Assembly: GCA_025362975.1 (NCBI GenBank)
Contig: JANYES010000018.1
Span: 147,309-211,308 of the forward strand
Origin: Alphaproteobacteria bacterium
GTDB taxonomy: Bacteria > Pseudomonadota > Alphaproteobacteria > Rickettsiales > SXRF01
DNA length: 64,000 bases
Reading direction: 5' to 3'
How positions within the stretch are numbered: the first letter of the stretch is position 1; each line of letters starts with the position of its first letter. Both the position numbers and the translations under genes were made by a program. The notes below the pieces were generated by a model, which saw only the letters and a program-made list of their open reading frames with translations, searched no databases and was not told the origin of the DNA. This document shows positions 1,556 to 58,886 of this stretch, one piece after another.

Positions 1556-3205
1556 TCATGCAGTCCCTGCACGCCCCGGGTCTTTTACCCAAATTGCTAT
1601 AGAACGCATAAATGCCCATACGTCATTATCGCCGGGCATAATATAATTTGCGTCGGCAGGGTCACTTCCTAGCCTATTAAGCATGGCAATCGTCCATTTT
1701 GTTTTGTCACCGGGAACGTTTAGGTTTTCCAGCCAATTTTCGACTTCACCGTTTCTAACAGCAAAAATGCCGTATTTATCCAATGAATCAAAAAACGTAG
1801 CTGCCCCTGCGAAATCATCACCCCCAAGAAGGTTGATGCCCCCGTCTGTTTTTATATTTCGTCCAGTTGCTTCAAATATTTTGGCAGTAGCTAACCGAGT
1901 AGTACGATAAGAATGATATTGATCTCTCGGAATTTGGGCTGCTTTCATCCATCCTGTCCAGTTTTTACCGAAATCGTTTACGAGATCAATGTCAGCGATT
2001 CCAACGGCAGGGACACCGAATTGCCTTAGAGGGCCAATAATATCTCGAATTGTTTGCTTGTTTTGTGCATTAACAAACAAAAGTGAAGGAGCATCAGGTT
2101 CTTGTTGAACGAGGCGATAATAAATTTCCGAATAAAAGGCACGGTCGTTATCCGACTCACAAACAACAACCCCGTCATGAAAAAGGGCTGAAATTACATT
2201 GGCACTTCTCATTAGCGGACGTCTAAAAAATTCACGAAGTTGGTCAGCATTGACCATTTTCCCTCGTGATCTTCCATTATTGTATTCAAGACGTATAACG
2301 CTTACATCCGCCGCTCCTTGCAAGCAGCCCATTAAAAAATCTGAACTGTGCGTTGATGCCATCAGACATCCACCACGTTCGGAGTTGAGTTTTGCAAGAT
2401 TTCTACCAAGTTTTCGAGCTAAGGGCGGATGCAAGAATGCCTCCGGTTCATCAATTAGAACAGTGTGGAACTTTGCTGATAATATGGCCGTAGTAATACC
2501 CGTAAATGCCTGAACACCATCACTAGCCTCTTTAATATGTAATGCCTGCCCATGATAAGCTCGCGCCGCAACGTTAAGACTTTGTTCGTCATCAAGTGGC
2601 GGCCTTTGCGAAAGTTTAATTCGAAGTTGGCCTAAGTTTGTAGGGTCGATAACATAATATAATCCGAAGGCGTCGAAGATTTGTTCACGTACTTTTTGGC
2701 GTAGAAAATCGTTTTTGAATAGATGGGTTAGCATGTTCGATGAAGCAGATTGTAAATCGCCCCCTGTTTGGTCGTTGGTCAGGTCGAATCGCGTGCGCCC
2801 ATCTAAGCGTATAAGTTCCCAGCGCAGCACTTGAGATACCCACCATGCCTTGTTTTGCCGTGTCCGAACCATCTCAAGCATAGTAGGATAGTGAACGCTA
2901 TGAGATCCCCCATGATAAGGACTCAGCGCACCTAAATTTAGATGTTCAAACTGTATATCGTTTGTTTGAAGTGGAATAAGCGAATCTATAAGGGTCTGCA
3001 CTTCAGTCAATTCTGGCCATTCAATCTCAAAATCTTGCAACACTTTTCCTGTTGTATAAGGGGTATTGGATGAGAATGCAGTTTGCAGTTCTTTTAGCAC
3101 AAGACTTTTCCCAGAATTGTTAGGTCCAACAAAAATTGTGACGCCCGCTGTGGTAATTTCTAGCGGCTCATTCTCGGTAAATCGAAGTGTGATAGATTTT
3201 AACAT
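1556..3205 (-). CDS. ABC-type ATPase fused to a TOPRIM/DUF4435-like domain (OLD-family or single-chain PARIS-like AriA-AriB)
   Basis: Walker A GPNNSGKS, Walker B HTVLIDEPEAFLHP and H-loop ASTHSSDF. The C-terminal region has VVVCESDNDRAFY ... GVPAVGIADIDLV (E ... DxD Toprim-like acidic motifs). Confidence 0.75.
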   Translation of the reverse strand: MLKSITLRFTENEPLEITTAGVTIFVGPNNSGKSLVLKELQTAFSSNTPYTTGKVLQDFEIEWPELTEVQTLIDSLIPLQTNDIQFEHLNLGALSPYHGGSHSVHYPTMLEMVRTRQNKAWWVSQVLRWELIRLDGRTRFDLTNDQTGGDLQSASSNMLTHLFKNDFLRQKVREQIFDAFGLYYVIDPTNLGQLRIKLSQRPPLDDEQSLNVAARAYHGQALHIKEASDGVQAFTGITTAILSAKFHTVLIDEPEAFLHPPLARKLGRNLAKLNSERGGCLMASTHSSDFLMGCLQGAADVSVIRLEYNNGRSRGKMVNADQLREFFRRPLMRSANVISALFHDGVVVCESDNDRAFYSEIYYRLVQQEPDAPSLLFVNAQNKQTIRDIIGPLRQFGVPAVGIADIDLVNDFGKNWTGWMKAAQIPRDQYHSYRTTRLATAKIFEATGRNIKTDGGINLLGGDDFAGAATFFDSLDKYGIFAVRNGEVENWLENLNVPGDKTKWTIAMLNRLGSDPADANYIMPGDNDVWAFMRSIAIWVKDPGRAGTA

Positions 3206-3313
3206 GGCTTTGACAGGATGCGGTTGATGATGACATGAACTGATGCAAACTTATTTTTTGCAACCTACTTTCTGGCTGATGGTTCAGGAAAAAATTCACT
3301 GGTATCCATGAAA

Positions 3314-5791: not shown

Positions 5792-7207
5792 TTATGCCCA
5801 ATAAGGCAAATAACGGGCATAGCGGGTGGACATGGTTTCTGAGTCGTCTGCCTTAATAAGACCTATATCTTTGGTCGCGCTTATAACCTGCGAAATAGTG
5901 GACATGGAATCGGGAAGCCCAAACCGTTCACGAAGGGATTGGTTCGACATGCGCTTATTACTAACGTACAGCAAACAGCAATGTTGGTAGCAGGCACGGA
6001 CACGATCATTCTTGCTCATATCCGCAAAGTCTTGGTGTCCAAACATGATGGCGGTCGTCCGCAAGTCGCCCTCCCTGAAATCCGGCGCAGGAAGCTGATA
6101 ATGTTCTGCTGCCTCTACCACCTTATCGACACCACTGCCTTTTTCTTCACAGATACCAAGGCGGCGCATCAAATCAGCTAACCGTTCATTGCGGGAGCGA
6201 TACTCGTCGATGAAACGCTCCACTTTGATAGGCGGTAAGCCGGGATTGGAAATCTCTACCCTGTCATCATACATTTCGATCATGACGGATGCGCCGGACG
6301 TATTGAAATCCTGATGAACCAGCGCATTGGCAATTAACTCGCGCAGTGCCTGCTTGGGAAACATCTTCACGTCTTCGCGCAATGTTTGCTCAACGACATG
6401 ATTGCGCGGGGCGGCGGCATGGACGAAATCTACCAGTCCTTCAAATGCAACGGCATAGCCTCGCGTTCCCATAATGTCGTCGCGGGTTTTTAATTTATTC
6501 GTGCCTTCATAATGTACGAAGCGTGGGGCTTTGCGGGCAAGTGAAGCAGGGAAGGCATCCAGCTTTTTGGCAAGCAGGATGGCGGCAAGATTGGTGATTG
6601 TCCAGCCTGACTCCGAACGGTTTATTAAACCCTCCCCTTCTAACCGTTCCAAAACCGCGTCGCGGTTGGTGGGATAGGGAAGTTTCAGCAGGTCGAAGTA
6701 AGCCTGCGTATCGAGTAGGGCGATGACTTCATCCGGGCTGGCATTGGTTTTTGCTGGCTGGGAAAACCAATCCGGCTGGCCTTCGGCAAAAATGGCGCGA
6801 AGCTTATCCTGCGTCATGGCGATGGTACTTTCACCGGAGCGCATCAAGTACGCCCCTTCAAACGCGATGGCCTGACCTATGCCACGGGAAGGAACTTCAA
6901 ACACCAATACGCGCCCGTCTGGGTGTTGTAATGCCGTTGTCTCAACGCATATGTCGAGCGTCTGAACAATACGCAGTTTAATAGCGTTTAAATCGGCTTG
7001 AGAGGCATAGGCATGTGACCCGACAACCTGTCGTGGTCTGGTATCCGTGACCCCCAGCACAATAAACCCGCCGCCTTCGTTAGCAAGAGCGGCGCAGTAG
7101 CGTAGAAGCTTAGTGGAATCATACTGCTGTTTGGCTTCCTTAAATTCGAGCCGTTCCGTTTCGCTCGGAGCGTCAAGCCAGCGTTGCAGGGTTTCGAGTG
7201 TAATCAT
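5792..7207 (-). CDS. AlbA_2 (divergent AAA / DNA-binding) + HATPase_c_4-like protein embedded in the hsd operon
   Basis: N-terminus SETERLEFKEAKQQYDSTKLLRYCAALANEGGGFIVLGV (AlbA_2 pattern). The C-terminal ATPase-like and wHTH-like region overlaps the hsdS stop by 4 nt. Confidence 0.75.
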   Translation of the reverse strand: MITLETLQRWLDAPSETERLEFKEAKQQYDSTKLLRYCAALANEGGGFIVLGVTDTRPRQVVGSHAYASQADLNAIKLRIVQTLDICVETTALQHPDGRVLVFEVPSRGIGQAIAFEGAYLMRSGESTIAMTQDKLRAIFAEGQPDWFSQPAKTNASPDEVIALLDTQAYFDLLKLPYPTNRDAVLERLEGEGLINRSESGWTITNLAAILLAKKLDAFPASLARKAPRFVHYEGTNKLKTRDDIMGTRGYAVAFEGLVDFVHAAAPRNHVVEQTLREDVKMFPKQALRELIANALVHQDFNTSGASVMIEMYDDRVEISNPGLPPIKVERFIDEYRSRNERLADLMRRLGICEEKGSGVDKVVEAAEHYQLPAPDFREGDLRTTAIMFGHQDFADMSKNDRVRACYQHCCLLYVSNKRMSNQSLRERFGLPDSMSTISQVISATKDIGLIKADDSETMSTRYARYLPYWA

Positions 7208-12918: not shown

Positions 12919-14085
12919 TTAACTTTCTTCGCTGACCTTTATAGGCGCAGCCAGCGCAAAGATAACATCCGTTGCCCGCTGCACCGATTCTCGCACGGGG
13001 TCGAGGTTCAGGCGTGAATAGACCTGCGTGGCCTGCTGGGATTTATGTCCTAGGGATTTGCCGATGATTGAAAGGGAAGCCTCGGTAATGGCCTGATAGC
13101 TGCCTAAGGTACGGCGGATGTCATGGATGCGGAGGTCGGTGATGCCAGCGGCTTCCATGACCCTTGTCCATGCGCGTTTGGGGTCGGAATAATGGGTGCT
13201 GCCGTTCTTGCCGGGAAATACCCATCGACTGCCTGTTCCTTTACGGCGGCGTTGCAGGATTTCGATAGCGGTGGGAATAAGCGGTAATGTTACCGGGTCG
13301 CCGTTCTTGGTTTCGGCGATGCGCCATTCCGCCCGTTCCCAATTCACCTCGCTCCATTGCATAGCGAGGACGTTCGACTTACGCGCACCCGTCAGCAGCG
13401 ACATAAGAATATAATCACGGGCGGTTTCATTCTTTTCCTTGCCAAGCGCCTCATGGAAACGAATCAGCTCATCGGTTTGCATAAAACGGTCGCGGGAGCG
13501 TTCACGGAACTTTTTGATGCCGAGGGTAGGATTGCTACCTTCCCAGCCCCATTCGATGGCTTTATTAAAGATGGCGCGGATGCGTTCCAGCAGGCGGTTA
13601 GCTTGGTACTGTCCGTTTTCCCGCCCAACCTTTTCGTGGAGCTTGGCGACTTCCTGTTTGGTGATCGACGAAATCTTACGGGTGAACCAGTGCGGCAGGA
13701 ATTTGTTTACCTCGCGCTGGTCGTATATCCACGATTTCTTGTGCGGCTTGCTGTATCGCTCCATGTAATCATGGAACAGCTCGGCGAAGGTCGTTTCCTG
13801 CCGCAGTTTAGTCTTTTCCATGTTAGGGTTCGCGCCGCCTGCGATAGCTGCCTTGGTTTTCAGCGCCGCTACCCGTGCCTGTTCGACTGTCATATCCGGG
13901 AAAGCGCCGAGTTTCACGCGCTCATCACGCCCGTGGATGCGCTTCCTTACGAAGAAAGTTACTGCACTACCCGCTGTAATATAAAGGCTAAGACCTTTTT
14001 CTTTGGTGTCACGGTAGGACATCATGCCCTTGGCGGGGACGGGTAATTTTTGAATCTCTGATTTGGTAAAATTGAACGCTTTCAT
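12919..14085 (-). CDS. int: P4-type tyrosine integrase (DUF4102 N-terminus)
   Basis: N-terminus KGLSLYITAGSAVTFFVRKRIHGRDERVKLG. Catalytic LTGARKSNV (R), HDIRRT (HxxR), LGHKSQQATQVYSRL (H ... Y). The start is set at ATG 14085. Confidence 0.9.
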   Translation of the reverse strand: MKAFNFTKSEIQKLPVPAKGMMSYRDTKEKGLSLYITAGSAVTFFVRKRIHGRDERVKLGAFPDMTVEQARVAALKTKAAIAGGANPNMEKTKLRQETTFAELFHDYMERYSKPHKKSWIYDQREVNKFLPHWFTRKISSITKQEVAKLHEKVGRENGQYQANRLLERIRAIFNKAIEWGWEGSNPTLGIKKFRERSRDRFMQTDELIRFHEALGKEKNETARDYILMSLLTGARKSNVLAMQWSEVNWERAEWRIAETKNGDPVTLPLIPTAIEILQRRRKGTGSRWVFPGKNGSTHYSDPKRAWTRVMEAAGITDLRIHDIRRTLGSYQAITEASLSIIGKSLGHKSQQATQVYSRLNLDPVRESVQRATDVIFALAAPIKVSEES

Positions 14086-14092
14086 AAACTCC

Positions 14093-14134
14093 TCATTGCC
14101 GCACCGTTGCCGCAAATTGGAGTCTATTGCCGCA
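14093..14134 (+). repeat. Three 11-bp repeats TCATTGCCGCA / CCGTTGCCGCA / CTATTGCCGCA next to the integrase start
   Basis: Read directly. They belong to the same family as 1534-1555 at the other island end. Confidence 0.6.
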
Positions 14135-14234
14135 ATTTTCATCATGCAAGGTTAAATAATGAAATCGCTGAGAGTCGCAGTTTATAAGGGTTGGGATGGC
14201 TGTATTAAATTTCGCTACACATACGTTCCTGTGG

Positions 14235-14296
14235 CTCATAACCTGAAGGCCGCAGGTTCAAATCCTGCCCCCGCAACCAACACCAGAGCCACTTTC
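14235..14296 (+). other. 3' part of an initiator tRNA-Met gene (anticodon loop CTCATAA to CCA) plus trailer; contains att-like direct repeat B
   Basis: CTCATAACCTGAAGGCCGCAGGTTCAAATCCTGCCCCCGCAACCA parallels the anticodon loop to 3' end of E. coli tRNA-fMet. No matching 5' half (acceptor or D-arm) precedes it. Confidence 0.8.
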
Positions 14297-14324
14297 CGAA
14301 GATTGGCTAAATCCTCAAAAAACT

Positions 14325-14346
14325 CCGTTGCTACCCCGTTGCTACC
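14325..14346 (+). repeat. Perfect tandem 11-bp repeat CCGTTGCTACC x2
   Basis: Read directly. It sits at the same distance from DR-B as 1534-1555 does from DR-A, suggesting the homologous left end of an older island. Confidence 0.6.
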
Positions 14347-14402
14347 TGTCGGGCAAGTTTATAGTAGGCTTCTAATAACAATCCGTTATTGAATAAGCCT
14401 AT

Positions 14403-14852
14403 ATGTCCTATTTAATAAACTTTGATGATCCCCAGAACTTTGAACCAAGATATTTTGAAACTCTTGGCGCAGTAATTGGCATTTATTTTGTTTTTCTAAC
14501 AAAAACGAAAATTGCCTATCCATTTAAGCCTTCACGACTCATTTATGTAGGTATGAGTGAGCGCAGAACAAATAGTATCGGCACACGGTTAACGGATCAC
14601 TATATTGGTCGCTCAGGTAATAAGGGGTTACAAAACTATCGTAAGATTGAGCAACTCCAATTCACTTATTTGAACTTCCAAATTTTGGAAGGAATATGGC
14701 CTTCTAAAATAGAAGACCTTGAAAGCTATCTATTATTAGACTTCGTTGAACGGTTTGGTGTATATCCAATTTGTAATAACAAGAGTACTTACCCAGAATC
14801 TCTATTCAATTCTCAAAAGCCTTTAGAAATAGACTGGAATTATTTTGATTGA
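14403..14852 (+). CDS. GIY-YIG superfamily nuclease (149 aa)
   Basis: Motifs in order: GIYFVF, YVGMS, R-x3-H (TRLTDH), acidic LESYLLLDF and CNN. Confidence 0.7.
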   Translation: MSYLINFDDPQNFEPRYFETLGAVIGIYFVFLTKTKIAYPFKPSRLIYVGMSERRTNSIGTRLTDHYIGRSGNKGLQNYRKIEQLQFTYLNFQILEGIWPSKIEDLESYLLLDFVERFGVYPICNNKSTYPESLFNSQKPLEIDWNYFD

Positions 14853-15042
14853 GGCAATGATGGCAAAAACAGGCACAGAGATTTTACAAGATTTTATAAA
14901 AGCCCTCGATAATAACCCCGGCTGGGATGCTGACGTAGTGTCTGTAATACAAACTCTATGTAAAGAGGGCAGGCTAACTGATAAAGCAATTTCCAACGAA
15001 TTAGAAAACCTTCGCAAGCAAAAGCTCAATGAAAATCCGTAA
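14845..15042 (+). CDS. Small helical protein (65 aa; alternative ATG at 14857)
   Basis: It overlaps the upstream stop by 8 nt and the downstream start by 14 nt. I recognise no motif. Confidence 0.5.
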   Translation: MIEAMMAKTGTEILQDFIKALDNNPGWDADVVSVIQTLCKEGRLTDKAISNELENLRKQKLNENP

Positions 15043-17416
15043 GCTGGAACTGAAAAACTTTAGAGGTGCAAGGGAGGCCATTCCTCTAATTTTGGAAACA
15101 GGCCAATCAGCATTGATCTATGGAGATAATGGGGCGGGCAAGAGTTCTTTTGCAGATGCTATTGAATGGTTCATAACAGACAAAATTTTTAGGTTAGATG
15201 GTGAAGAGGTTGGTACTTATGGGGGGGTACGAAACGAATTGTGCGCCCTTACTGATGAGTGTTCCGTTAGTATTGAATGTGTTGGTGGTTTAGGAGGCAC
15301 TAAAAAACTTCAAACAGTGGGAGATCGCCAAAAACCCGAAATCGATACAAAAGCCACAGAAATTATAGAGAAGCTTTCTAAAGAAAACCTGATTATTAGA
15401 AACTCTCAATTGGTTGATTTTATTATTGCCACCAAAGGGGAAAGATTAGTTGAAATATCTAATTTGGTTGGATTAGAGGAATTAATAAAAACAAAAGCCA
15501 CTTTAACAAAAGCGGCAAATGATCTTAAAAGACTTTTGCGCGATAGGAATTTTGAATCTCAAATAGCTTCTAAAAAGAAGCTGCTTTTAGAAAAGCTCAA
15601 CGCAAATATATCTAATCGAAAGCAATTTTATGCAGCTATAAATGCCAAGATAAAGCCCTTCGAGCTTGGCATTGAAGTTAAAGACTCCTTATCCTTAGCA
15701 CAGGTTATTAAGCTTCTCAAAGAAGGTATTAATGAGAAGGAACAAAAGGAACAAACCACTCTAGAGCTAGCCGAGAACTCTCTTAAAGAGCAATTTGAAA
15801 AGCTAGCGGATTTTGAATCTAAGCTTACAGAGTTTTCTAAGGGTATTGCAGCTCTCAAAGAAGAGAAGAAGTCACTTGGTCAGATAAAACTATCCAAGCT
15901 CTTAGAAGAGGCAGAAAAGGTACTCGCAATACATGAAAATGATGATTGCCCATTATGCCAAAAACCTATCGAGAGAGCTATTTTAATAGACCTGATTAAG
16001 AAAAGAATCGCCGATCTCAAATCAGTCCAAGAAAAATTCAAACTAATAAACGAATTAAGAGAATCGCTTTATGAATCTCTTAGATCAATATATCAGGCCA
16101 TTAAACTTAGGCTGACAGAAATACAGAATTTGGGGATTTCTAATATAGATATTTCCCATGCCTTAGAAGGCCAGAAAGCTTTAGAGCCTTTAGGGAAAGA
16201 GCTAAAAAAGGACACTTTAGAAATAGAAATTACTAGTCTTGTTTTTCCTAAGGAAAAACTTCAATCGATCCAAAATTTAGCTACTGAAATAAATACAGAA
16301 TTATTAAAGCGTCGAAAAAGTAATACCAGCCAAAAAATAGAGTTATTAACTACTATTGCGATAGCAGAAAGTACGCTCACTGATATTGAGAATATGGAAG
16401 CTGAAAAAGCCATAATTGACAAACAAAAAGAAGCTCTAGAGGGTATCAGAGATTATTTTATTGCCCTTCAGAGGCATGAAACTGAAATTCTAATTAAAGA
16501 CATAGCTGAAAAGGTAAATGAATATTTTGTATTCATGAATCAGGGGGCTAATGTTGATGGCATCAAATTTTCCCCTGTAATTTCCAATGAAGAGTTTGTC
16601 GGGATAGCGATTGAATTCGTTTTTCATAAAAAAACAGTCGCATCACCAAAAAAATTCTTGAGCGAATCATATCTAAACTGTATCGGATTGTGCCTATTTT
16701 TGGCATCGCTATCTGTTAATAAGAACGCAAACTTCTTTGTGCTTGATGATGTGATTTCAAGCTTTGATAAGAAGCATCGGATTAGATTTGGTCAATTATT
16801 AGCAAACAAATTCTCCAATTATCAAATTTTGGCTCTTACACATGAATCTGAATGGTTTGAAATCTTTGCAAATGAAGTTCGCGGTAAAGGCTGGAAAATC
16901 CATAAGGCAAAATGGAATCCTGAAACAGGTATATCGCTTGATATACCCTCTATTTCGTTATTAGAAAAAATCCAATCTAAGATTGATGCTTCTGAAGAAG
17001 ATGGACTAGGAAATACTCTTAGAATTTATACAGAGCGTCTATTTAAGGAAATGTGCTGTTCCTTAGGGGCTAGGGTTTATTTCCAGTTTAATGATAACAA
17101 TGAAAATCGCATGATGAGCGAATTACTCAATTATATAAAATCTCGCCTTGCAGAGAAAAACCCTGATCTTGCTAAATCCGATATAATCACAAACCTGAGT
17201 ACGACGAATTTTATTGCCAATACAACTTCGCATGATTCTTCCTTCAAAGAAAATATCGATGACTTCAAAGTAATTTGGCAGGATTTACAAAAATTGGATG
17301 GGCTTTTTAGATGTGGCGAATGTAAGAAACTTGTCAATTTCAAAACCTTCGATTCTTCTAGCAAAGAAATACATTGCGGATGCAGCAAAAGGAAAGCTGT
17401 GAATTGGAAGGATTGA
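15029..17416 (+). CDS. AAA_13-type ABC/SMC-like ATPase with coiled coil and CxxC hook; RloC/PrrC-like C-terminal region
   Basis: Walker A GDNGAGKSS (res 33-40), K/E/L-rich heptad region res ~120-500 with CPLC at 307-310, LSESY, Walker B FFVLDDV and LALTHE. The C-terminal region has LRIYTE (R-x3-E), SH at 734-735 and a terminal CGEC ... CGC zinc ribbon. Confidence 0.85.
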   Translation: MKIRKLELKNFRGAREAIPLILETGQSALIYGDNGAGKSSFADAIEWFITDKIFRLDGEEVGTYGGVRNELCALTDECSVSIECVGGLGGTKKLQTVGDRQKPEIDTKATEIIEKLSKENLIIRNSQLVDFIIATKGERLVEISNLVGLEELIKTKATLTKAANDLKRLLRDRNFESQIASKKKLLLEKLNANISNRKQFYAAINAKIKPFELGIEVKDSLSLAQVIKLLKEGINEKEQKEQTTLELAENSLKEQFEKLADFESKLTEFSKGIAALKEEKKSLGQIKLSKLLEEAEKVLAIHENDDCPLCQKPIERAILIDLIKKRIADLKSVQEKFKLINELRESLYESLRSIYQAIKLRLTEIQNLGISNIDISHALEGQKALEPLGKELKKDTLEIEITSLVFPKEKLQSIQNLATEINTELLKRRKSNTSQKIELLTTIAIAESTLTDIENMEAEKAIIDKQKEALEGIRDYFIALQRHETEILIKDIAEKVNEYFVFMNQGANVDGIKFSPVISNEEFVGIAIEFVFHKKTVASPKKFLSESYLNCIGLCLFLASLSVNKNANFFVLDDVISSFDKKHRIRFGQLLANKFSNYQILALTHESEWFEIFANEVRGKGWKIHKAKWNPETGISLDIPSISLLEKIQSKIDASEEDGLGNTLRIYTERLFKEMCCSLGARVYFQFNDNNENRMMSELLNYIKSRLAEKNPDLAKSDIITNLSTTNFIANTTSHDSSFKENIDDFKVIWQDLQKLDGLFRCGECKKLVNFKTFDSSSKEIHCGCSKRKAVNWKD

Positions 17417-17511
17417 TTTGTTTCTTCTTTCAAAACAATATGCTAATTGTATTATATAGTTATAATTTAAAAAATAAATACCGCGCAAGCAGTAGCTGGA
17501 GATTTTAAATA

Positions 17512-18141
17512 ATGCAAAATGCTAAATTTGATAGAGCAAAACATGTCTATAGAAATGAGGCTTTTGTAGAACTGGTCAAAGACGCAGTTCGTTTTTTTAA
17601 TGGAACTCCAGTACACGCCCTGCCTCCTCCTGAGAAATTTACCGGCACTGGGGTATATGCGCTTTATTACATAGGAAAAAATGAATTATATAAAAAATAC
17701 GCCGAGCTAAACAGGCTATCTTATGGTTATCCAATATATGTTGGAAAGGCTGTTCCAAGGGGATGGCGGCAATCTCGCCAATCAGATAACGCTCTGAATC
17801 AATCAAATGAATTGTTTTCGAGACTCAAAGAACATAGCAGAAATATAAGCTCAGGGCACGGGCTTGAGATAGCAGACTTTTATTGCCGCTTTGTGATATT
17901 TGAAGAAGATGGATCAGATATGATAAGCACTATAGAGGCAGCCCTAATAAAACTAAATAGACCCCTTTGGAACACTATTGTAGATGGGTTTGGCAATCAT
18001 ACTCCTGGTGCGGGGCGTTTTGAGCAAGCAAAGTCTGATTGGGATCAAATTCACCCCGGAAGAGGCTGGGCTGAGAAATGCAATGGTATGCCAAAAGATA
18101 AAGATAAAATTATCGCAGAAATTGAGAAACACTTTGGTTAG
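17512..18141 (+). CDS. Eco29kI-family (GIY-YIG) type II restriction endonuclease
   Basis: LPPPEKFTGTGVYALYYIG ... YPIYVGKAVPRGWR ... RLKEH ... GFGNHTPGAGR, as I recall the RE_Eco29kI family. Confidence 0.8.
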   Translation: MQNAKFDRAKHVYRNEAFVELVKDAVRFFNGTPVHALPPPEKFTGTGVYALYYIGKNELYKKYAELNRLSYGYPIYVGKAVPRGWRQSRQSDNALNQSNELFSRLKEHSRNISSGHGLEIADFYCRFVIFEEDGSDMISTIEAALIKLNRPLWNTIVDGFGNHTPGAGRFEQAKSDWDQIHPGRGWAEKCNGMPKDKDKIIAEIEKHFG

Positions 18142-18158
18142 CTGTAAAGGAGCGTCCT

Positions 18159-19319
18159 ATTCAATCTGTTGAACTTTTCTCAGGTGCAGGCGGCCTTGCT
18201 AAGGGGCTAGAAATCGCAGGTTTCCAACATATTGCGTTTGTTGAGTACAACAAAGACGCTTGCTCATCTTTACGTTCAAATTTTAGGCCTGACCTTGTTT
18301 TTCAAGGTGATATTAGAGATTTTGATCTAGATGTATTGTCCAATATTGCGATTGTTGCTGGCGGCCCACCATGCCAACCCTTTTCACTTGGTGGTAAACA
18401 TAAAGCTCACGATGACAACAGGGATATGTTTCCCTATGCAATTAAAGCAATTGAAAAGCTCAAACCAAGAGCTTTTGTGTTTGAAAACGTAAAGGGTTTA
18501 TTACGGCAATCGTTTTCTGAATATTTCCAATACATAATTCTAAGGCTAAGTTACCCAGACTTTTTACCTAATTTGGATGAAGATTGGAAAGAGCAATTAG
18601 TGCATCTTCGATCCATAAATTATAATAAGTACTCGGGAATTAAATATGATGTTAGTTATCAGCTAATAAATGCTGCTGATTATGGAGTGCCACAAACTCG
18701 TGAGCGTGTTGTAATTGTTGGTATTCGTTCAGATTTAAATAAGAAGTGGGAATTCCCAAAGGCCACTCACTCCAAGACTAGATTAATATGGGATCAATAT
18801 GTTTCTGGAGAATATTGGGACAATCATGGAATATGCGCCCCTGAAGGCTCTATTTTTGATAGATATACTCAGCAAACAATAGACCGCTTAAAACGGTATC
18901 ACGGCATGTTTCCTCCAGAAGAAAAGGCATGGAAAACCATACGAGATGCACTCGTGAATGTGCCTTCACCGCAAATGCCGCACACAATATCAGACCATAT
19001 ATTTAGAGATGGTGCAAAATGCTACCCGGGGCATACGGGCAGTGATCTAGATTGGCCTTCTAAAACTATTAAGGCTGGTGGACATGGAGTGCCGGGAGGA
19101 GAAAATATGATTAGGTTCCCCGATGGTACGGTGCGCTATCTTACAGTTTATGAAGCAAAGCTTCTGCAAACATTTCCTCGTGATTTTACTATTACGGGTG
19201 CTTGGGGTGAGGCAATGCGCCAAATTGGTAATGCTGTGCCTGTTTTAATGGCTGAAACAATTGGACGGCAATTGCACTCTCTTATCAGCCACCCAACTGC
19301 AAAAAAGAAAGTTGCCTAA
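18159..19319 (+). CDS. DNA (cytosine-5) methyltransferase; start codon uncertain (proposed ATT 18159)
   Basis: Motif I ELFSGAGG (from 18171), IV GGPPCQPFS, VI ENV, VIII QTRERV, X GNAVPV. The frame opens at 18126 and has no ATG, GTG or TTG before motif I. AAGGAG at 18147-18152 lies 6 nt before ATT. Confidence 0.8.
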   Translation: MQSVELFSGAGGLAKGLEIAGFQHIAFVEYNKDACSSLRSNFRPDLVFQGDIRDFDLDVLSNIAIVAGGPPCQPFSLGGKHKAHDDNRDMFPYAIKAIEKLKPRAFVFENVKGLLRQSFSEYFQYIILRLSYPDFLPNLDEDWKEQLVHLRSINYNKYSGIKYDVSYQLINAADYGVPQTRERVVIVGIRSDLNKKWEFPKATHSKTRLIWDQYVSGEYWDNHGICAPEGSIFDRYTQQTIDRLKRYHGMFPPEEKAWKTIRDALVNVPSPQMPHTISDHIFRDGAKCYPGHTGSDLDWPSKTIKAGGHGVPGGENMIRFPDGTVRYLTVYEAKLLQTFPRDFTITGAWGEAMRQIGNAVPVLMAETIGRQLHSLISHPTAKKKVA

Positions 19320-48334: not shown

Positions 48335-48645
48335 CGCGCAGCCAGTTCTGCGATACGCGTTTCCGCTTCTTTAATTTTGCCTTCGGTGTGTTTCAGGATT
48401 TGGGCGCAGGTGGATTTGTCGGAGCTTTTGAGCAGTAGTAGCTGTTTGATTTCATCCAGGGTGAAGTTGAGCGCTTTTGCACCGCGGATAAAGCGCACCC
48501 TGCGTATGGCTTCTTCATTGTATAGCCTGTATCCGCCTGCAGAGCGCGACTCGACTGAAATGAGATTCATCTTTTCGTAATAGCGCAATGTATCCGCGCT
48601 TACGGCAGTCAGTTGGGCCAGTTTTCCGATTGTGATTTTTTTCAT
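48310..48645 (-). CDS. MerR-family transcriptional regulator
   Basis: MKKITIGKLAQLTAVSADTLRYYEKMNLI ... YRLY wHTH, followed by a coiled coil. The C-terminal end is unusually short. Confidence 0.8.
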   Translation of the reverse strand: MKKITIGKLAQLTAVSADTLRYYEKMNLISVESRSAGGYRLYNEEAIRRVRFIRGAKALNFTLDEIKQLLLLKSSDKSTCAQILKHTEGKIKEAETRIAELAARCLRCLYR

Positions 48646-48669
48646 GAATACATCTTACACCTTAAGGAA

Positions 48670-49020
48670 GTAAGCAACCCTCAACGCTCTAAGATAACCA
48701 TTCAAAACACATTGCGCCGGATACTGGAAAATTACTTCAAGATTCTTGGCAACCTCGATAAAGACAAGTTCATCGAAAAATTTACAGGGAAAGATAAGCA
48801 AATCTGTGGCTCCTTATTCTCATGGGTTAATGATGGTTCCCACGCCGTACATGATGACCTTTACATCTCAGCCGACGATGCCGCTATCGAGCGTTACCTA
48901 GATGTGTTCAAACGGATTTTTGAAATCACGGGACACATGGAACATTATAACATGATGATGAAAATTGAACCTGTGGCTGCACCGCCTCAGCCAGTAGTTG
49001 CAGAACTAGCAGTAGCATAA
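48670..49020 (+). pseudogene. C-terminal fragment of an AAA_13 / PrrC-RloC-like ATPase
   Basis: NTLRRILENYFKILG ... VNDGSHAVHDD shows the R-x3-E ... H pattern. No ATPase domain lies upstream. Confidence 0.55.
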
Positions 49021-49299
49021 ATAGAGTATACGACACATTGCATTTACTACTGATTCTGCTATAATTGCGCCACTGGATACAGGAAGGGTTTTACTGGCAG
49101 GACTGTCGGTGGTTGTCGAAGCTAGGGCGTTAACTCGTCACGGTAGGTACATAAAGCTTACAGCAGTAATGAGCTTGTTTCCTAGGATTTACCTACAAGT
49201 GCTATTTTGGGGAATACTGTTGTTTTGCCCTAGCTCTAAATTGGTAGATAGAACCAAGTTCAATTCTCCCGTCTTCGCACCATATAACTACTATATTAA

Positions 49300-49340
49300 T
49301 ACCGTTCCTCGCTTCGCTGCGGTACGCTTCGCTTACGGTA
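49300..49340 (+). repeat. CGCT-rich element, copy 1
   Basis: T-ACCGT-tcc-TCGCTTCGCT-gcggta-CGCTTCGCT-t-ACGGT-A. The flanking pentamers are reverse complements. Confidence 0.6.
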
Positions 49341-49459
49341 AGTCAACCGTTCTTTATACCAGATTGTTTATACAGGCTGTAAAGCAATGTCACGATAGTA
49401 TGGCTTAAAATCATAATGCCAAGAGATATAGATAGTGAGAACAAACATAGTCAGTTTGT

Positions 49460-49605
49460 AACTGGTGTACTCGTATACATACTATGTTAACGCACGTACG
49501 TGCATCATCTCCGGTTATCTATGGTGGTACATGCCATACTGGTTACTGGTATGTATCTGGTAATAATTACATCTGATATTATTACTGGTGATATAATTAC
49601 TGTTC
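49460..49605 (+). repeat. Iteron-like cluster of TACTGGT and GGT(A/G)AT..AATTAC repeats
   Basis: TACTGGT occurs at 49537, 49544 and 49583, with variants at 49460 and 49555. GGTAATAATTAC and GGTGATATAATTAC are also present. Confidence 0.55.
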
Positions 49606-49623
49606 ACATTTCGCTAAATGTAA

Positions 49624-49667
49624 CCATGTTCTCTTCGCTTCGCTCGTGCCGCTATTCGCTCACATGG
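49624..49667 (+). repeat. CGCT-rich element, copy 2
   Basis: CCATG-ttctc-TTCGCTTCGCT-cgtgc-CGCTATTCGCT-ca-CATGG. Confidence 0.6.
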
Positions 49668-49842
49668 GGATTAAGGCTTCTACTAAGTATGAGGCAAAGA
49701 TATAAGTGTATTGATTAATATATATTATTTAGATGACACATTTCTGTTGCTTACATCTGTAATATTACTATGTTCTGCCATCTAAAATTAAATCAGTATA
49801 TTGATATGATTGTACTGCTTATTTGCTATTCAGGTATGTAAT

Positions 49843-49879
49843 CCACGTGTTCGCTTCGCTCACCCGCTATCGCTAACGT
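49843..49879 (+). repeat. CGCT-rich element, copy 3
   Basis: CACGT-g-TTCGCTTCGCT-caccc-GCTATCGCT-a-ACGTG. Confidence 0.6.
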
Positions 49880-49966
49880 GAGGATAGATTTTGAAACTGA
49901 TACCAGAGGTAATCAGGGTAATTTTATTAAGCATGAGACAAGGTTATAATTTATATGAATACGGTA

Positions 49967-50632
49967 TTACTGCTCTTCCGGTGGCTGCTTAAAGCCTTCG
50001 GTCAGCCAGTTCTTTGAATTGGTATAAGGCTTACTCTGCGTAACGAGAATTTCCGACTTCCTGAAGCCTCCGACAATCCAACTGACCAGTACCGGAAAAT
50101 TGTCTTTCACGGTAAGGGTATACAATATCCTACCTATACATTCGATACTCATAAGTGGGGCAACAATATACAATAGGTATACTATCCATACCATCACATA
50201 GATAACTATAACTACGCTATACTTTTCATTCCCTGATATGAAGCCAGCGCATAGTAATACTGCTACTAAGGGAATCGAAATCGTATCCAGCCAGAATGTC
50301 AGTGTGTTTAGCAGATTCTTAGTCCGGCTATACCATCTCCAATTCGCCATACTAAATGGTAATTTAGAGTAGAAGAAATGAATCAACCCATAGTTGTCAC
50401 TAACAAGCGGATACCTCTTGCAGCGCGTTTTAATCCTCTGCAGTAATACTCCGATAAAAAGATTCGCGGCTATAGCCATGTTACCAGATATGCTGTCACT
50501 TGGGTGTGTTATATTCATCATTACAAAAATAGTTCCAATTACCAGAAACGTATGCCTGAAGTAGAGAGCTATCAGCACAGTGATGACCAGCGGTATATTA
50601 AATACTATTCCAATGATAAATAAGCCGTTCAT
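49967..50632 (-). CDS. Polytopic membrane protein (221 aa), unknown function
   Basis: About 6 hydrophobic segments, with AGGGAG 6 nt upstream of the ATG. Confidence 0.6.
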   Translation of the reverse strand: MNGLFIIGIVFNIPLVITVLIALYFRHTFLVIGTIFVMMNITHPSDSISGNMAIAANLFIGVLLQRIKTRCKRYPLVSDNYGLIHFFYSKLPFSMANWRWYSRTKNLLNTLTFWLDTISIPLVAVLLCAGFISGNEKYSVVIVIYVMVWIVYLLYIVAPLMSIECIGRILYTLTVKDNFPVLVSWIVGGFRKSEILVTQSKPYTNSKNWLTEGFKQPPEEQ

Positions 50633-50644
50633 GGTCTACTCCCT

Positions 50645-50680
50645 AAAGCAAAACGGCCACCAGATGAATCTCTGGTGACC
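50645..50680 (-). terminator. Terminator-like hairpin abutting the RBS of the membrane-protein gene
   Basis: The minus strand reads GGTCACCAGA-gattca-TCTGGTGGCC-GTTTTGCTTT, followed immediately by AGGGAG-N6-ATG. Confidence 0.5.
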
Positions 50681-50880
50681 GAGGAGTTTGTACCGCTACA
50701 TGAACGGCGCAGCCTATTCGCTTGCGCTATTATATTCAGCCGCCTCCTCAGCCCTAAGGTGAGAAAGGCAGCATCATTGGTTACGGCCCGATGCTGTATT
50801 TAAGCCGCATGTAGAGGGTACAAAGCCTCAAAAGCCCTATCGGACTTCTGGCTACAGGGTATGGGAGGGACAGCAATACG

Positions 50881-52530
50881 TCAATCGCTATTGATAACGA
50901 TATTGGCAGGGTCGTACTTGTCCATTGCGGCTTTAAGCTGCTGGAGGGTATAGCCTTCTGCATTGTAATTACGCTGTGAGGTTCCAGTACGTTCATGCCC
51001 GATTAACATCTCTATGATCGGCTGTGAAACGTCAGCTTGGTACAGGCAGGTATTAACCGTATGGCGGAACGAATGAAATACATACGCTTTAGTTTTCTTG
51101 TCATCGCGTTTTTTGATACCCAACTGGACGAGCAGTATTTCATTGAAGTAATGGCTTAATTTCTTACCATAGCCGTTCTTCTTGCAGTAAGTCAGTTCAT
51201 ACAAAAAGCGTTCATGTTTTTGCTTACGCAACCGCTTTACTTCATCAATAATGCCAGCCTGTAACAAGACAGTGTGAATTGGAACCCTGCGCCGTGATGC
51301 AGCCGTTTTTAGTTTTTTATCTTCGGCATCATTATTGATATGGAAGTACCAGATACCTGCGCTTTCCTTAATGTCTTCTACCTTTAACTGTGCAATTTCA
51401 TTTACACGCGCTCCTGTGTACATACCCAGCAATGCACCCCAGTATTGATAATGTTTGCCTTCTGTTTTTGTGGTGCTGATTGCTTTCTGAAGATGAAGAA
51501 CCTGATGGGCATTAAAGGGCTTACGGACAATCTTATCCTTGTCTTTTTTGTCAACGCTGGCTTTTATGTTAGTAAACGGATTGGTCGTTAGATAACCCTC
51601 CGCAACACACCAGCTAAAGAAGGCTCCGTAGCAGTTCAGGTATTGCTTGACCGTAGTTGCCGACATCTTGCTTGCGTTAGATTTGATTGCATCCATAAGC
51701 GACAAATTTTTTACCAATGGATTCTTATGGCGGTTCGCTGGCAACTGTTTAACTGTATCGCGTATCTCACGCGCTTCATCCTGCCCAATATCCAAGATAG
51801 GATAATCGCCACCTTTGATCTCTAGAAGCATGTTTAGTATGGCTTGTCTATTCTCCCTTGTGCTTTCATTCCATGCCTTATCTGCTACATGCACCGCGAC
51901 AAATTTACTGACCATTGCACCTAATTTAAGTGTACCACCAGCAGGATTTTTACGCCGTGAGGGTATGGATGGTGGTATGGCTGTAGGCGTAAAATCAAAG
52001 TTATCCTGCTCATGATTGAACCTTATGATCTCAGCGCATACCGCTTGCATTGCCTTTACGTATGCTTTGCGGAGGCGTTCATACTCCGGTGTGTTCTCGG
52101 CTATGTCGATCTGCATCGTGTTAATCAGCTTAGTCAAACCATCTGAATAAAGGCTAACCCCGTCATTGGCTAAGTCGCTTAAAAATGAGGTATCGTCTAT
52201 GGTGGCTTGCAGACGGGCTATCTCGGCAGGTGGCAGTACGTCACCTTCAAGGATACGGCGTTTTTTCTCATCCAAGAACCGCTGGCAGTATTCCTGCACT
52301 ATGGCCTTTATCTGTTGGTGTGGCATACCCTTCACCCAGTCCTGCTGTATTATGCTGTTGGCACGATAGGCTAGGATTTGAGCAAGATACAGTGCTGCTT
52401 TGGACTGCCGTGTACCTAGCGATAATTTGACATAACGGCGTTTAGCATCCGGCAGGAAATGCAGCGGGATAGGCCAGCGGAAATGATATACATGATACTC
52501 CGATAGAACCAGATAAGCAGGATTGTACAT
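50881..52530 (-). CDS. Large tyrosine recombinase / integrase (549 aa)
   Basis: Catalytic TGARVNEIAQL (R), HSFRHT (HxxR) and LIGHERTGTSQRNYN (H ... Y), with a long N-terminal arm-binding-like region. Confidence 0.9.
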   Translation of the reverse strand: MYNPAYLVLSEYHVYHFRWPIPLHFLPDAKRRYVKLSLGTRQSKAALYLAQILAYRANSIIQQDWVKGMPHQQIKAIVQEYCQRFLDEKKRRILEGDVLPPAEIARLQATIDDTSFLSDLANDGVSLYSDGLTKLINTMQIDIAENTPEYERLRKAYVKAMQAVCAEIIRFNHEQDNFDFTPTAIPPSIPSRRKNPAGGTLKLGAMVSKFVAVHVADKAWNESTRENRQAILNMLLEIKGGDYPILDIGQDEAREIRDTVKQLPANRHKNPLVKNLSLMDAIKSNASKMSATTVKQYLNCYGAFFSWCVAEGYLTTNPFTNIKASVDKKDKDKIVRKPFNAHQVLHLQKAISTTKTEGKHYQYWGALLGMYTGARVNEIAQLKVEDIKESAGIWYFHINNDAEDKKLKTAASRRRVPIHTVLLQAGIIDEVKRLRKQKHERFLYELTYCKKNGYGKKLSHYFNEILLVQLGIKKRDDKKTKAYVFHSFRHTVNTCLYQADVSQPIIEMLIGHERTGTSQRNYNAEGYTLQQLKAAMDKYDPANIVINSD

Positions 52531-52580
52531 AGGATTGTCCCTGTTGGGAGTACCTCTGCCCTGTTTATTAGGCTAAGTCT

Positions 52581-53219
52581 TTGGATTTCAAGTGTTTGGT
52601 GGAGAATAGGAGAATGGAATGTGCGGAAATGTTGCGCGACAGCTCCGCCATGCTGCTGGAGTTAATGAAAAATATGCTGGATACGTCGAAACTCAATGCC
52701 GGAATGATGGAGATTGAGCATATCCAATTTGACCTTGCTAAAATGGTGCAGAGTGCGGTGCATATTATTGCAACCAGCGCGGCGGAAAAAGGACTCGACC
52801 TGCAGGTGCATCTTGCGGCGGGCTTGCCTGAGCATTGCATCGGCGACCCGTTGCGCATTTCCCAGATACTGCTGAATCTTTTAGGTAACGCTGTAAAATT
52901 TACTGAAAAAGGGAGCGTGACGCTGTATGTGGCTGTTGGGATTGGAGCCGATGGTACGGAACAACTCTGCATTACGGTTGCGGATACGGGGGTGGGCATC
53001 AGTGAAAAAGGCCGCGAAAAGATTTTTACCAAATATATGCAGGAAAATTCCAGCATCAGCCGTAATTACGGCGGAACCGGACTCGGACTTACCATCAGTC
53101 AGGATTTGGCGCATCTGATGCATGGGACGATTGTGGTTAAAAGCTGGCCGGGCATGGGCTCGCATTTTATCGTTACCTTGCCACTCAACAAATCATCGGC
53201 GCTTTCAACCGCAGCGTAA
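52581..53219 (+). pseudogene. Histidine kinase, 5'-truncated (end of the HisKA helix plus HATPase_c)
   Basis: LLELMKNMLDTSKLNAGMMEIEHIQFDL, then N-box LLNLLGNAVKFT, and G-boxes DTGVGI and GGTGLGLTI. No H-box or sensor region lies upstream. Confidence 0.8.
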
Positions 53220-57563: not shown

Positions 57564-57829
57564 ACGATTATTCCTTTTCAGAGGTTCAGGATTGTTTGAA
57601 ATATGTGGAAGCGTACGCGCGCCGAAAAACGACGACTGCGATAGGGAGGGGCACAAAACGGGTGTAACAGCTGAAACAGCTTGCGCATTAGCATTGGATA
57701 CACACTCCCAGACGTTGACGGCCTGCCCCGGTGTCGTTAAACACCGGCGCGTGTCACCGCACTGCAAAGAGTGGATGGGCGGTTAGGCCCTACCAATGTA
57801 CTCCAACGAAAACACCCCGTTTCCTGAGC

Positions 57830-58030
57830 ATGCGTGACACTTAATGGCAGGTCTCCTGACTTGCGGGTCGCGGCTCTTGGCATGTCTTCCCAGATTCGTA
57901 ATGAACCCAGTGACGGTGTGTCGTTTGCCTTAAGCTCGCCGCTTACAGTTGCGGGGGCAGTCGTGGCTTTGGAGATGAATCCGTACCACATTCCCTTTTC
58001 ATCATCCTTGCGGATGAACCATTGGGCGAG
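57830..58030 (-). promoter_or_regulatory. Cobalamin (B12) riboswitch
   Basis: The minus strand reads AAAAGGGAAUGUGGU ... ACUGCCCCCGCAACUGUAAGCGG ... CACUGGG ... CUGGGAAGAC ... CCCGCAAGUCAGGAGACCUGCCAUUAAG. These are the conserved core and the B12 box. Confidence 0.88.
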
Positions 58031-58124
58031 AACCTAGCGGCGAAGATAGGGTGTCGTCAACTGATTTGTTACAGTTTGATGACAGTTTGTGGACAAGCGG
58101 TCTGATTCGCTTTACAAAATCTGC

Positions 58125-58810: not shown

Positions 58811-58886
58811 GCCCAGATAGCTCAGTTGGTAGAGCAAGGGACTGAAAATCCCTGTGTCGCTGGTTCGATCCCGGCTCTGGGCACCA
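58811..58886 (+). tRNA. tRNA-Phe (anticodon GAA)
   Basis: Full cloverleaf by hand: acceptor GCCCAGA/TCTGGGC, D-arm GCTC-AGTTGGTA-GAGC, anticodon arm AGGGA-CTGAAAA-TCCCT, T-arm GCTGG-TTCGATC-CCGGC, and encoded CCA. Confidence 0.97.

Follow-up and report, generated by a model that had tools for sequence, protein, structure and literature searches.

Mini-hairpin DNA of the class GCGNAGC/GCGNNAGC, a motif named after Hirao, has two G-C pairs that clamp a loop beginning with G and ending with A, with a sheared G-A pair above them; it remains folded in 7 M urea, and its stability lies beyond conventional thermodynamic estimates (Kimoto and Hirao, review, PMC13037366). The motif is found at the primase start in the complementary-strand origins of G4 (GCGAAAGC) and St-1/alpha3 (GCGTTAGC), a related CCGAAGG hairpin, with regions nearby that the primase RepB' contacts, is present in the single-strand initiation (ssi) site ssiA of RSF1010, and two consecutive mini-hairpins are bound poorly by single-stranded DNA-binding protein (SSB) (PMC13037366). 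Here we describe a gene-free kilobase (positions 49021-49966) in a 64-kb stretch of contig JANYES010000018.1 from an alphaproteobacterial assembly, the whole of which is referred to as the window. It contains three CGCT-rich hairpin elements, a cluster of iterons and an AT-rich segment, and lies near a tyrosine integrase gene in a decayed genomic island. The closest textbook case is RSF1010 oriV, in which hairpins likewise stand beside direct iterons and an AT-rich segment. The kilobase would represent a known kind of module, combining hairpins and iterons for initiation, in a new setting.

The likeness to these systems is specific in some respects and limited in others. As at the G4 and St-1/alpha3 origins and at RSF1010 ssiA and ssiB, a GC-clamped G..A loop tops a longer hairpin on one strand, and one related island (L234) uses the St-1/alpha3 octamer GCGTTAGC itself. 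The similarity is nonetheless restricted to this short motif, and the setting is a chromosomal tRNA-Ala island rather than a phage or plasmid. G4 has three adjacent hairpins and the IncQ plasmids have two facing ssi sites, whereas the window has two mini-hairpins in each element and three direct elements 216-326 nt apart. The window island also differs from ssi systems in having no primase, helicase or initiator gene, and priming is predicted only.

The three elements share the core TCGCTTCGCT-N4-6-CGCT(N0-2)TCGCT, read in all three cases on the plus strand, which is the strand as read; the minus strand has the sense of the integrase gene. In this plus-strand reading element 1 (49300-49340) is TACCGT-tcc-TCGCTTCGCT-gcggta-CGCTTCGCT-t-ACGGTA, element 2 (49624-49667) is CCATGT-tctct-TCGCTTCGCT-cgtgc-CGCTATTCGCT-c-ACATGG and element 3 (49844-49880) is CACGT-gt-TCGCTTCGCT-cacc-CGCTATCGCT-a-ACGTG, and all three are assigned as hairpins to the minus strand. 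An initial annotation of this DNA had reported three copies of a shared core, and direct reading of 48700-50300 together with a pattern scan bears this out, with the third copy at 49844-49880. The gapped pattern CGCTTCGCT-N3-8-CGCT-N0-3-CGCT matches exactly these three sites in 64 kb and gives no match in 100 dinucleotide-preserving shuffles of the window; no further copies were found in the remaining 63 kb. Successive elements are 326 and 216 nt apart. The pentamer TCGCT is directly repeated four times within each element, with spacings that vary among the elements (0, 1 or 2 nt, and 4, 5 or 6 nt). Because the copies are separated by indels of 1-2 nt, which are not multiples of three, they do not encode a conserved peptide.

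Each core is framed by perfect complementary arms of 6 bp (elements 1 and 2) or 5 bp (element 3), and the 3' arm starts constantly 1 nt past the core in all three. Arms of 5 bp or more occur at random sites in the window with a probability of 0.042 and arms of 6 bp or more with one of 0.0076, and the joint chance of framed arms in all three copies is 2e-6 to 9e-5, of the order of 1e-5. The bracketing by complementary pentamers proposed in the initial annotation is thus non-random, with arms slightly longer than described, and its suggestion that covariation keeps the stem stands for the outer 3-4 pairs, where the covariation is true, and fails for the innermost pairs, which are conserved (YGT...ACR). 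In element 3 a sixth outer pair would be a T.G wobble as read on the minus strand, and the same position of the plus strand is a C.A mismatch. Judged by their sequences, the three CGCT-rich repeats are real, covarying hairpins.

The loops had been described as pyrimidine-rich, which is how they appear on the plus strand; the minus strand reads them instead as GCGNAGC/GCGNNAGC mini-hairpins, and it is probably this strand that is the informative one. Each loop contains two such units, A-GCGAAGC-G tac cgc A-GCGAAGC-G in element 1, A-GCGAATAGC-G and A-GCGAAGC-G in element 2, and A-GCGATAGC-G (decamer AGCGATAGCG) and A-GCGAAGC-G in element 3. The GC clamps stay constant, as do the G that opens each loop and the A that closes it, and the length and interior vary (GAA, GATA and GAATA here, and GGCA in the related locus L237). 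The minus strand of the three elements has five GCGNAGC/GCGNNAGC motifs, the plus strand none; the sixth loop unit, GCGAATAGC, with its three N, does not belong to the class as defined, so that all the loop units except this one match the sequence definition of mini-hairpin DNA. The density of these motifs across the window is 0.89 per kb per strand, against which the region is enriched (P about 0.002), and it is the 1-kb bin with the most of them.

Between elements 1 and 2 lies the iteron cluster (49459-49605), whose presence agrees with the initial annotation and which is also kept in L237. It has the unit (T/A)(T/A)ACTGGT five times on the plus strand together with an array of 15-nt period; with at most one mismatch, TTACTGGT occurs five times on the plus strand in the 146 bp of 49459-49604, where about 0.1 would be expected, and Tandem Repeats Finder reports the array as ATAATTACTGGTGAT at 49563-49602. 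Read in the integrase sense, the unit is ACCAGTAATAAT, again kept in L237. Hairpins 2 and 3 are separated by an AT-rich stretch (49670-49830) of 24-26% GC, in a region of GC 0.39 overall, and if the module is an origin, DNA unwinding could take place in this stretch. Iterons, AT-rich stretch and strand-specific hairpins together give the kilobase the layout of an iteron-type origin that carries single-strand initiation signals.

Since the public contigs carrying the same integrase are all 100% identical to the window, comparison was made through integrase homologues of 40-54% identity, which gave eleven loci and, with the window, 12 family loci. Six of them (L234, L235, L237, L330, L348 and L351) have a tRNA-Ala gene 65-140 nt upstream of the integrase, and three are bounded on the far side by a 19-nt direct repeat of the tRNA 3' end, giving islands of 6.1-6.4 kb. 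Their cargo consists of toxin-antitoxin and defence genes (HipA, SocA_Panacea, Abi_alpha, AbiJ, RES and SIR2-STAND), and no replication, primase, packaging or relaxase domains were seen in their gene tables. Going by the few source names attached to the integrase homologues, most of the hosts seem to be alphaproteobacteria.

The gene-free kilobase is colinear with non-coding positions 3985-5042 of L237, which share the iterons and two blocks. By BLASTN the iterons at 49564-49597 are 88% identical to L237 4184-4216 (E 1e-5). The first block, at 49040-49126 on the plus strand, corresponds to L237 4592-4677, with 73% identity over 86 nt from 49042 in a sensitive search (E 3e-12). The second (49164-49188, L237 4488-4512) is weak taken alone (E 0.024) and is backed by its colinearity. 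L235 and L237 have a further block in common (E 5e-20), and both have AT-rich repeat arrays; L350 has iterons of the form CTATGTGAACAA in 3-4 copies.

Hairpins of the same build occur on the integrase-sense strand of the relatives, with the form CCATGC-(N3-5)-AGCG(R)(Y)AGCGAC-(N0-2)-GCATGG, at L237 4361-4390, L328 3802-3829 and L350 3303-3335, with a variant at L350 3148-3185. Measured from the integrase stop, the hairpins of these three loci follow at a distance of 1.4-2.4 kb, and those of L237 and L350 come right after the iterons. Their loops are GCGGCAGC in L237 and GCGATAGC in L328 and L350; in L234, GCGTTAGC hairpins lie on both strands about 85 nt apart, nested in large inverted repeats. 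The decamer AGCGATAGCG of element 3 is identical to the L328 and L350 loops, the element 2 arms CCATGT/ACATGG are one compensated pair away from the CCATGC/GCATGG of L237, L328 and L350, and element 1 occupies the same slot between iterons and conserved blocks as the single L237 hairpin, both being followed by TTAATATAG. Across the four distinct stems of window and relatives there are two-sided changes at 5/6 positions with Watson-Crick pairing in 23/24 cells, a degree of pairing reached by 0/23 permutations of the 3' arms. A descriptor requiring perfect arms of at least 5 bp around AGCG-N1-3-AGCG has three matches in the 1.9 kb of the region (both strands) and 33 in 1.09 Mb of unrelated sequence. 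A screen of the relatives for the plus-strand CGCT motif gave no match because their loops are shorter. The initial annotation allowed that there might be no additional copies and that the flanking complementarity might be lost in homologous loci; exact copies were indeed not found elsewhere, but homologous loci do have hairpins of the same build. We take the hairpins, iterons and AT-rich stretch to be a non-coding module that is common to some small tRNA-Ala-targeting islands.

We tentatively favour a reading in which the gene-free kilobase serves a tRNA-Ala island that depends on a helper, acting in cis as its origin or priming module in single-stranded DNA; we infer the folding as single-stranded DNA, the priming or origin function and the helper dependence. 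The CGCT elements would act as DNA hairpins on the minus strand, in the same sense as the integrase gene, each with a 5-6 bp outer stem around two GC-clamped G..A loops (GCGAAGC, GCGATAGC and GCGAATAGC). When the excised island, or a transferred or displaced strand of it, becomes single-stranded, the mini-hairpins would fold and stay free of SSB, and so mark the start of complementary-strand synthesis by a primase or RNA polymerase that comes from the host or from a helper element. The iterons would bind an initiator supplied in trans, as the islands of roughly 6 kb have no rep, primase or relaxase gene; with neither an initiator or primase of their own nor a DnaA box, activation in trans by host or helper functions is what we would predict. 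The wider proposal, that tRNA-Ala islands of roughly 6 kb propagate through such a trans-activated module of iterons and mini-hairpin DNA, we regard as doubtful.

Small islands of this general kind have been described elsewhere. Mobilizable genomic islands with a mimic origin of transfer (oriT) and phage-inducible chromosomal minimalist islands (PMC10803314) similarly have about 6 kb, an integrase, few cargo or defence genes, a non-coding cis module and no replication, packaging or transfer genes of their own. The latter differ from the present islands, in which no AlpA/Xis-type gene was recognised, and are found in Vibrionaceae (PMC10803314). There are many small islands with an integrase and defence cargo and no visible means of replication or transfer, and if the favoured reading is right, the module would be the missing cis element for one such family. 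Mini-hairpin DNA, so far mainly a matter of physical chemistry and of a few phage and plasmid origins, would then gain a biological role in bacterial chromosomes, and others could be searched for by their signature, in which an iteron block precedes hairpins that have GCGN(1-2)AGC apexes and lie on the integrase-sense strand. Under the wider, doubtful proposal, these would be the first natural Hirao-type mini-hairpins acting as strand-specific initiation signals outside single-stranded DNA phages and IncQ plasmids, and the islands would be a new type of minimal island or satellite, dependent on a helper, among alphaproteobacteria, with the neighbouring sRNA-Xcc1-like element (see below) belonging to the same conserved backbone. 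If the elements are inert, they are only a neat case of compensatory change in a decaying island.

Several observations weigh against an origin or priming function. Direct repeats and an AT-rich region, both expected at an iteron-type origin, are present, and a cognate Rep gene and DnaA boxes are not: no DnaA box with at most one mismatch occurs in 49021-49966, no Rep, primase or helicase domains were found in the window patch or the related islands, and there is no initiator gene nearby. All three hairpins point in the same direction, while ssiA and ssiB of IncQ face each other. With ViennaRNA, under DNA and RNA parameters and on both strands, the hairpins are no more stable than shuffles (z -0.9 to +0.7), a null result that does not bear on the mini-hairpin property, which nearest-neighbour folding misses. 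The hairpin is present in only 4/12 family loci and is absent from all three whose ends were mapped. The window copies are missed by a covariance model of the four non-window hairpins (E>10, filters off), and BLASTN gives no link between the window elements and the hairpins of the relatives; the case for homology is therefore made from architecture, strand, position and short identities. No similarity was detected to PLSDB plasmids or INPHARED phages. Finally, the window copy belongs to a remnant island, so the function of the module may have been lost there.

The elements might alternatively be RNA, as stem-loops in a non-coding transcript or in the 3' untranslated region of the upstream open reading frame (ORF) in the integrase sense, either as small RNA (sRNA) modules or protein-binding hairpins akin to the sRNA-Xcc1-like element 1 kb away, or else transcribed from a promoter-like site on the plus strand. 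Stem covariation suits RNA as well as it suits single-stranded DNA, and the sRNA-Xcc1-like element has the same build and lies on the same strand; the tandem sRNA-Xcc1 homologues of Xylella, spaced at about 380 nt, resemble the 216-326 nt seen here. The promoter-like site, of the sigma-70 extended -10 type, lies at 49040-49068 within the conserved block 49040-49126 and faces the elements. It reads TTGCAT-N17-TGCTATAAT, that is TTGCAT-N17-(TGC)TATAAT, and is conserved in L237 as TGCTATAGT. A weak terminator-like hairpin at 49335-49350 also uses the 3' arm of element 1. The conserved promoter, however, would yield the CGCU sense rather than the AGCG sense, no U-tract or T-run follows elements 2 and 3 on direct reading, and the RNA fold of the conserved 5' block is backed by no compensatory changes. 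Rfam gives no match in 48900-50100 at E up to 10, and the fold energies are no better than those of shuffles for the elements or for 49070-49360, where a structured RNA was considered and set aside (z +0.45). With neither folding energies nor Rfam in its favour, the free-standing structured RNA that the initial annotation had allowed for is not supported. GAUA, GGCA and GAA are not RNA loops of the GNRA/UNCG class. All three do belong to the stable DNA class (PMC13037366). On balance we consider an RNA function unlikely.

A rather improbable alternative is that the elements are non-functional or selfish repeats, arising as local duplications or as mini-elements like repetitive extragenic palindromes (REP) or miniature inverted-repeat transposable elements that came in with the low-GC patch. 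In one variant a tiny core inserts into short palindromes, and the joined arms indeed read TACC-GTAC-GGTA, CCAT-GTAC-ATGG and CAC-GTAC-GTG, so that perfect arms would be explained without selection. The patch is foreign by its GC content and is decaying, and a dispersed repeat in a Rickettsiales metagenome-assembled genome (MAG) has a core nearly identical to that of element 2. REP, bacterial interspersed mosaic elements (BIME) and repeats of the Rickettsia palindromic element type are also short GC-rich hairpins in AT-richer intergenic DNA. Unlike them, the present elements form a single cluster in 64 kb, their stems differ, and their place near the integrase is fixed in three related islands, where hairpins of the same build lie on the same strand. 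No other copy is present in the remaining 63 kb, and neither a transposase nor a RAYT gene was seen close by. The Rickettsiales copies have no outer arms, and in a stricter metagenome scan arms around the core were at chance (3/53).

The four TCGCT pentamers of each element could instead be duplex DNA sites, forming operators to which a regulator, a partition protein or the integrase/excisionase binds, with the iterons as further protein sites. Such direct repetition, and the clustering of the elements with iterons in AT-rich intergenic DNA of regulatory appearance, would fit, but the arm covariation would be left unexplained, and the variable pentamer spacing would move half-sites around the helix, which hairpin loops tolerate. 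We think this explanation quite unlikely. The suggestion in the initial annotation that the iterons are arm-type recombinase sites is likewise hard to sustain, as such sites are expected near the attachment (att) ends, and the AT-rich repeat block of L235 (8640-9070), the only relative with both a mapped att repeat and such a block, is 2.7 kb from attL and 2.9 kb from attR.

Least probable of the functional alternatives, and in our view very unlikely, is an oriT mimic of a helper conjugative element, with the hairpin as the inverted repeat that a relaxase would bind and the nick region in the conserved flank on its 3' side, (G)GAATACAT or TTAATATAG: the islands are small and have no transfer genes, a stem followed by a semi-conserved flank recurs in L328, L350, L237 and window elements 1-3, and a loop motif of the single-stranded DNA type would suit a transferred strand, but four versions of the module have no similarity to 72,556 plasmids, no relaxase or accessory gene is present, and three direct copies with iterons are atypical of oriT.

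Other identities were tried and discarded. Integron attC sites resemble the elements in being imperfect inverted repeats of 40-140 nt that act as folded single strands with a tyrosine recombinase and occur as several copies in one orientation; they differ in that the ends of attC are conserved (RYYYAAC...GTTRRRY) and the centre is variable, the reverse of the arrangement here, and in that the present integrase is of the DUF6538 type rather than IntI and no credible ORFs lie between the copies, and attC identity was rejected on the first of these grounds and the lack of an IntI integrase. A CRISPR (clustered regularly interspaced short palindromic repeats) array is contradicted by spacings of 326 and 216 nt instead of 25-50 nt, and the ORFs of 38-58 kb, of which nine were compared with Pfam, showed no cas gene. 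As for Rho-independent terminators, there is only the weak site 49335-49350 at element 1, with no T-run at elements 2 and 3. A tRNA-like sequence at 49262-49290 (...GTTCAATTCTCCCGTCTTCGCACCA) is not a tRNA or tmRNA fragment according to ARAGORN and Rfam, which were both null, and as an att repeat it is on the wrong strand, the tRNA-Ala 3' end repeat being absent from the window.

The kilobase contains no ORF of note, as the initial annotation had stated: the ORFs of 99 aa and 72 aa that overlap it have no Pfam or PHROG match, the 99-aa product found only itself among 5.8 billion proteins, and tblastn of the relatives' post-integrase ORFs against 48600-50900 gave no match. An origin of the region from decayed coding sequence, raised earlier as a possible refutation, finds no evidence in these ORF searches, and the indels between copies are not multiples of three.

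The region lies in a low-GC patch (0.39-0.44, compared with about 0.48-0.50 in neighbouring kilobases) that contains, from left to right, an AAA_13 fragment, the gene-free kilobase, a 221-aa ORF and the 549-aa integrase. The fragment (48613-49020, plus strand) is the C-terminal part of a PrrC/RloC-like AAA_13 ATPase, covering profile positions 617-713 of 713, and forms the truncated left edge of the patch. The 221-aa ORF (49967-50632, minus strand) encodes a hydrophobic, multi-pass orphan and occupies the slot of variable ORFs in related islands. It has a good ribosome-binding site (RBS) directly past the sRNA-like element; its only homologue among 5.8 billion proteins is a truncated call on an identical contig, and it may be either a real orphan gene or a spurious ORF. 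From its domains (DUF6538 and Phage_integrase in Pfam), the 549-aa recombinase (50881-52530, minus strand) is a tyrosine integrase; its tblastn search against plasmids gave one distant Escherichia coli match only, and the window proteins are singletons at 90% identity.

Neither a tRNA-Ala gene nor an att repeat was found in the window, and the island, spanning about 48646-52555, is therefore regarded as a decayed remnant. The earlier placement of the region inside an integrase-bearing element accordingly holds in that it adjoins the integrase, and needs amending in that the element is truncated and has no tRNA-Ala and att repeat. At 52531-52580 the conserved integrase leader ACTCCCAACAGGGACAATCCTATG is kept and the tRNA is lost. 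A histidine-kinase gene (52581-53219, plus strand) abuts this leader and consists of the HATPase_c half only (212 aa, TTG start). As no N-terminal half was seen among the neighbouring ORFs of 38-58 kb, a deletion or rearrangement must have gone with the decay of the island.

Just 3' of the integrase gene is an sRNA-Xcc1-like element (50640-50790, minus strand) that ends in a terminator hairpin. Positions 50669-50753 align with sRNA-Xcc1 (RF02221) over its full length at a sub-threshold 42.7 bits (gathering score 53, E 2e-6), and the central hairpin, with 6-bp arms GCAGCG/CGCTGC around A-GCGCAAGC-G, displays a mini-hairpin motif. Over about 150-230 nt past the integrase stop, the DNA is about 73-76% identical across the window and its relatives, whose integrases have 40-54% protein identity. 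The corresponding loci are 50640-50790 (minus strand) in the window, L234 2775-2925, L235 7722-7872, L330 9305-9460 and L360 about 3100-3270. The terminator hairpin of this stretch shows compensatory changes and is directly followed by an RBS and a variable ORF, and the stretch looks like a conserved backbone RNA of the island family. Members of sRNA-Xcc1 occur on integrons, islands and transposons, sometimes in tandem, and like the CGCT elements have a hairpin with a central GC-clamped tetraloop; in a Xylella genomic island, homologues form five tandem copies about 380 nt apart (PMC12189769). The CGCT elements, unlike them, are half as long, have no second stem-loop and terminator, and do not match the family, so that their membership of RF02221 was rejected (E up to 10, 48900-50100).

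The TCGCTTCGCT core and the loop motif also occur in other settings. A Rickettsiales MAG, REEB497 (GC 0.33), has a dispersed intergenic repeat on two contigs (L091 5304-5345 and L106 about 6436-6476), located between housekeeping genes, whose core TCGCTTCGCTCATGCTCGCTATTCGCTCA comes close to full identity with the core of element 2, through either relationship or convergence. Outer arms are absent from this repeat, and two further hairpins follow, one of them with a compensatory change between copies. Acidobacteriota MAGs (L062, L071, L065, L098, L021 and L056) have a dispersed repeat ...CGACTGCGCGCTGC-TCGCTTCGCT-CACAGCGCTTCGCTCAGGATGACAGG that matches no Rfam family and whose stem covaries between genomes around the TCGCTTCGCT loop (GCGCTG/CAGCGC, GCGTTG/CAACGC and GCGGGG/CCCCGC).

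Tandem TCGCTTCGCT arrays are present in about 35 phage and giant-virus contigs among L123-L233 (e.g. L124, L162, L164, L168 and L227), with a variable spacer of 4-5 nt, a period of 14 or 15 and 2-5 or more units, each carrying GCGAAGC on the other strand; the period of 14 excludes a coding repeat. The viral pattern has 111 matches compared with 36 for a C/G-swapped control, a threefold excess that is mostly due to these 14-15-nt tandem arrays. In the viral loci L334 and L335 (9700-10650), whose integrase is 27% identical, a gene-free kilobase also follows the integrase and contains a hairpin with an 18-bp stem, the loop C-AGCGAAGCG-TTC and a GCGAAGC apex, and a second hairpin that reuses CATACTTGAAG; apart from these two, distant integrase relatives in viral contigs are too remote for comparison. 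Long imperfect palindromes with a TCGCTTCGCT...CGCT core at the apex occur in the viral contigs L207 (about 1100-1270, with arms of up to about 60 bp) and L178, L212, L216 and L223; that of L178 lies between two genes, its 3' arm overlapping the ribosome-binding site of the downstream gene.

A widespread family of TCGCTTCGCT hairpins was considered and rejected, the scans being dominated by low-complexity and tandem-repeat matches. Elsewhere, arms around the core are at about chance (roughly 8% among the matches listed), few matches have long ones (L047, L151, L207 and the L178 group), and no neighbouring gene common to the matches was found. The viral pattern CCATGC..AGCGNNAGCG..GCATGG gave eight matches (five distinct), about the number expected by chance and none beside a related integrase, and a literature search for the 10-mer found only primers.

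Elsewhere in the window, a second low-GC stretch at 14001-19000 (0.34-0.40, with about 0.46-0.54 on either side) suggests another foreign insertion. A cobalamin riboswitch (57829-58038, minus strand, 118 bits) and a tRNA-Phe gene (58811-58886, plus strand) are both ordinary and unrelated to the module.

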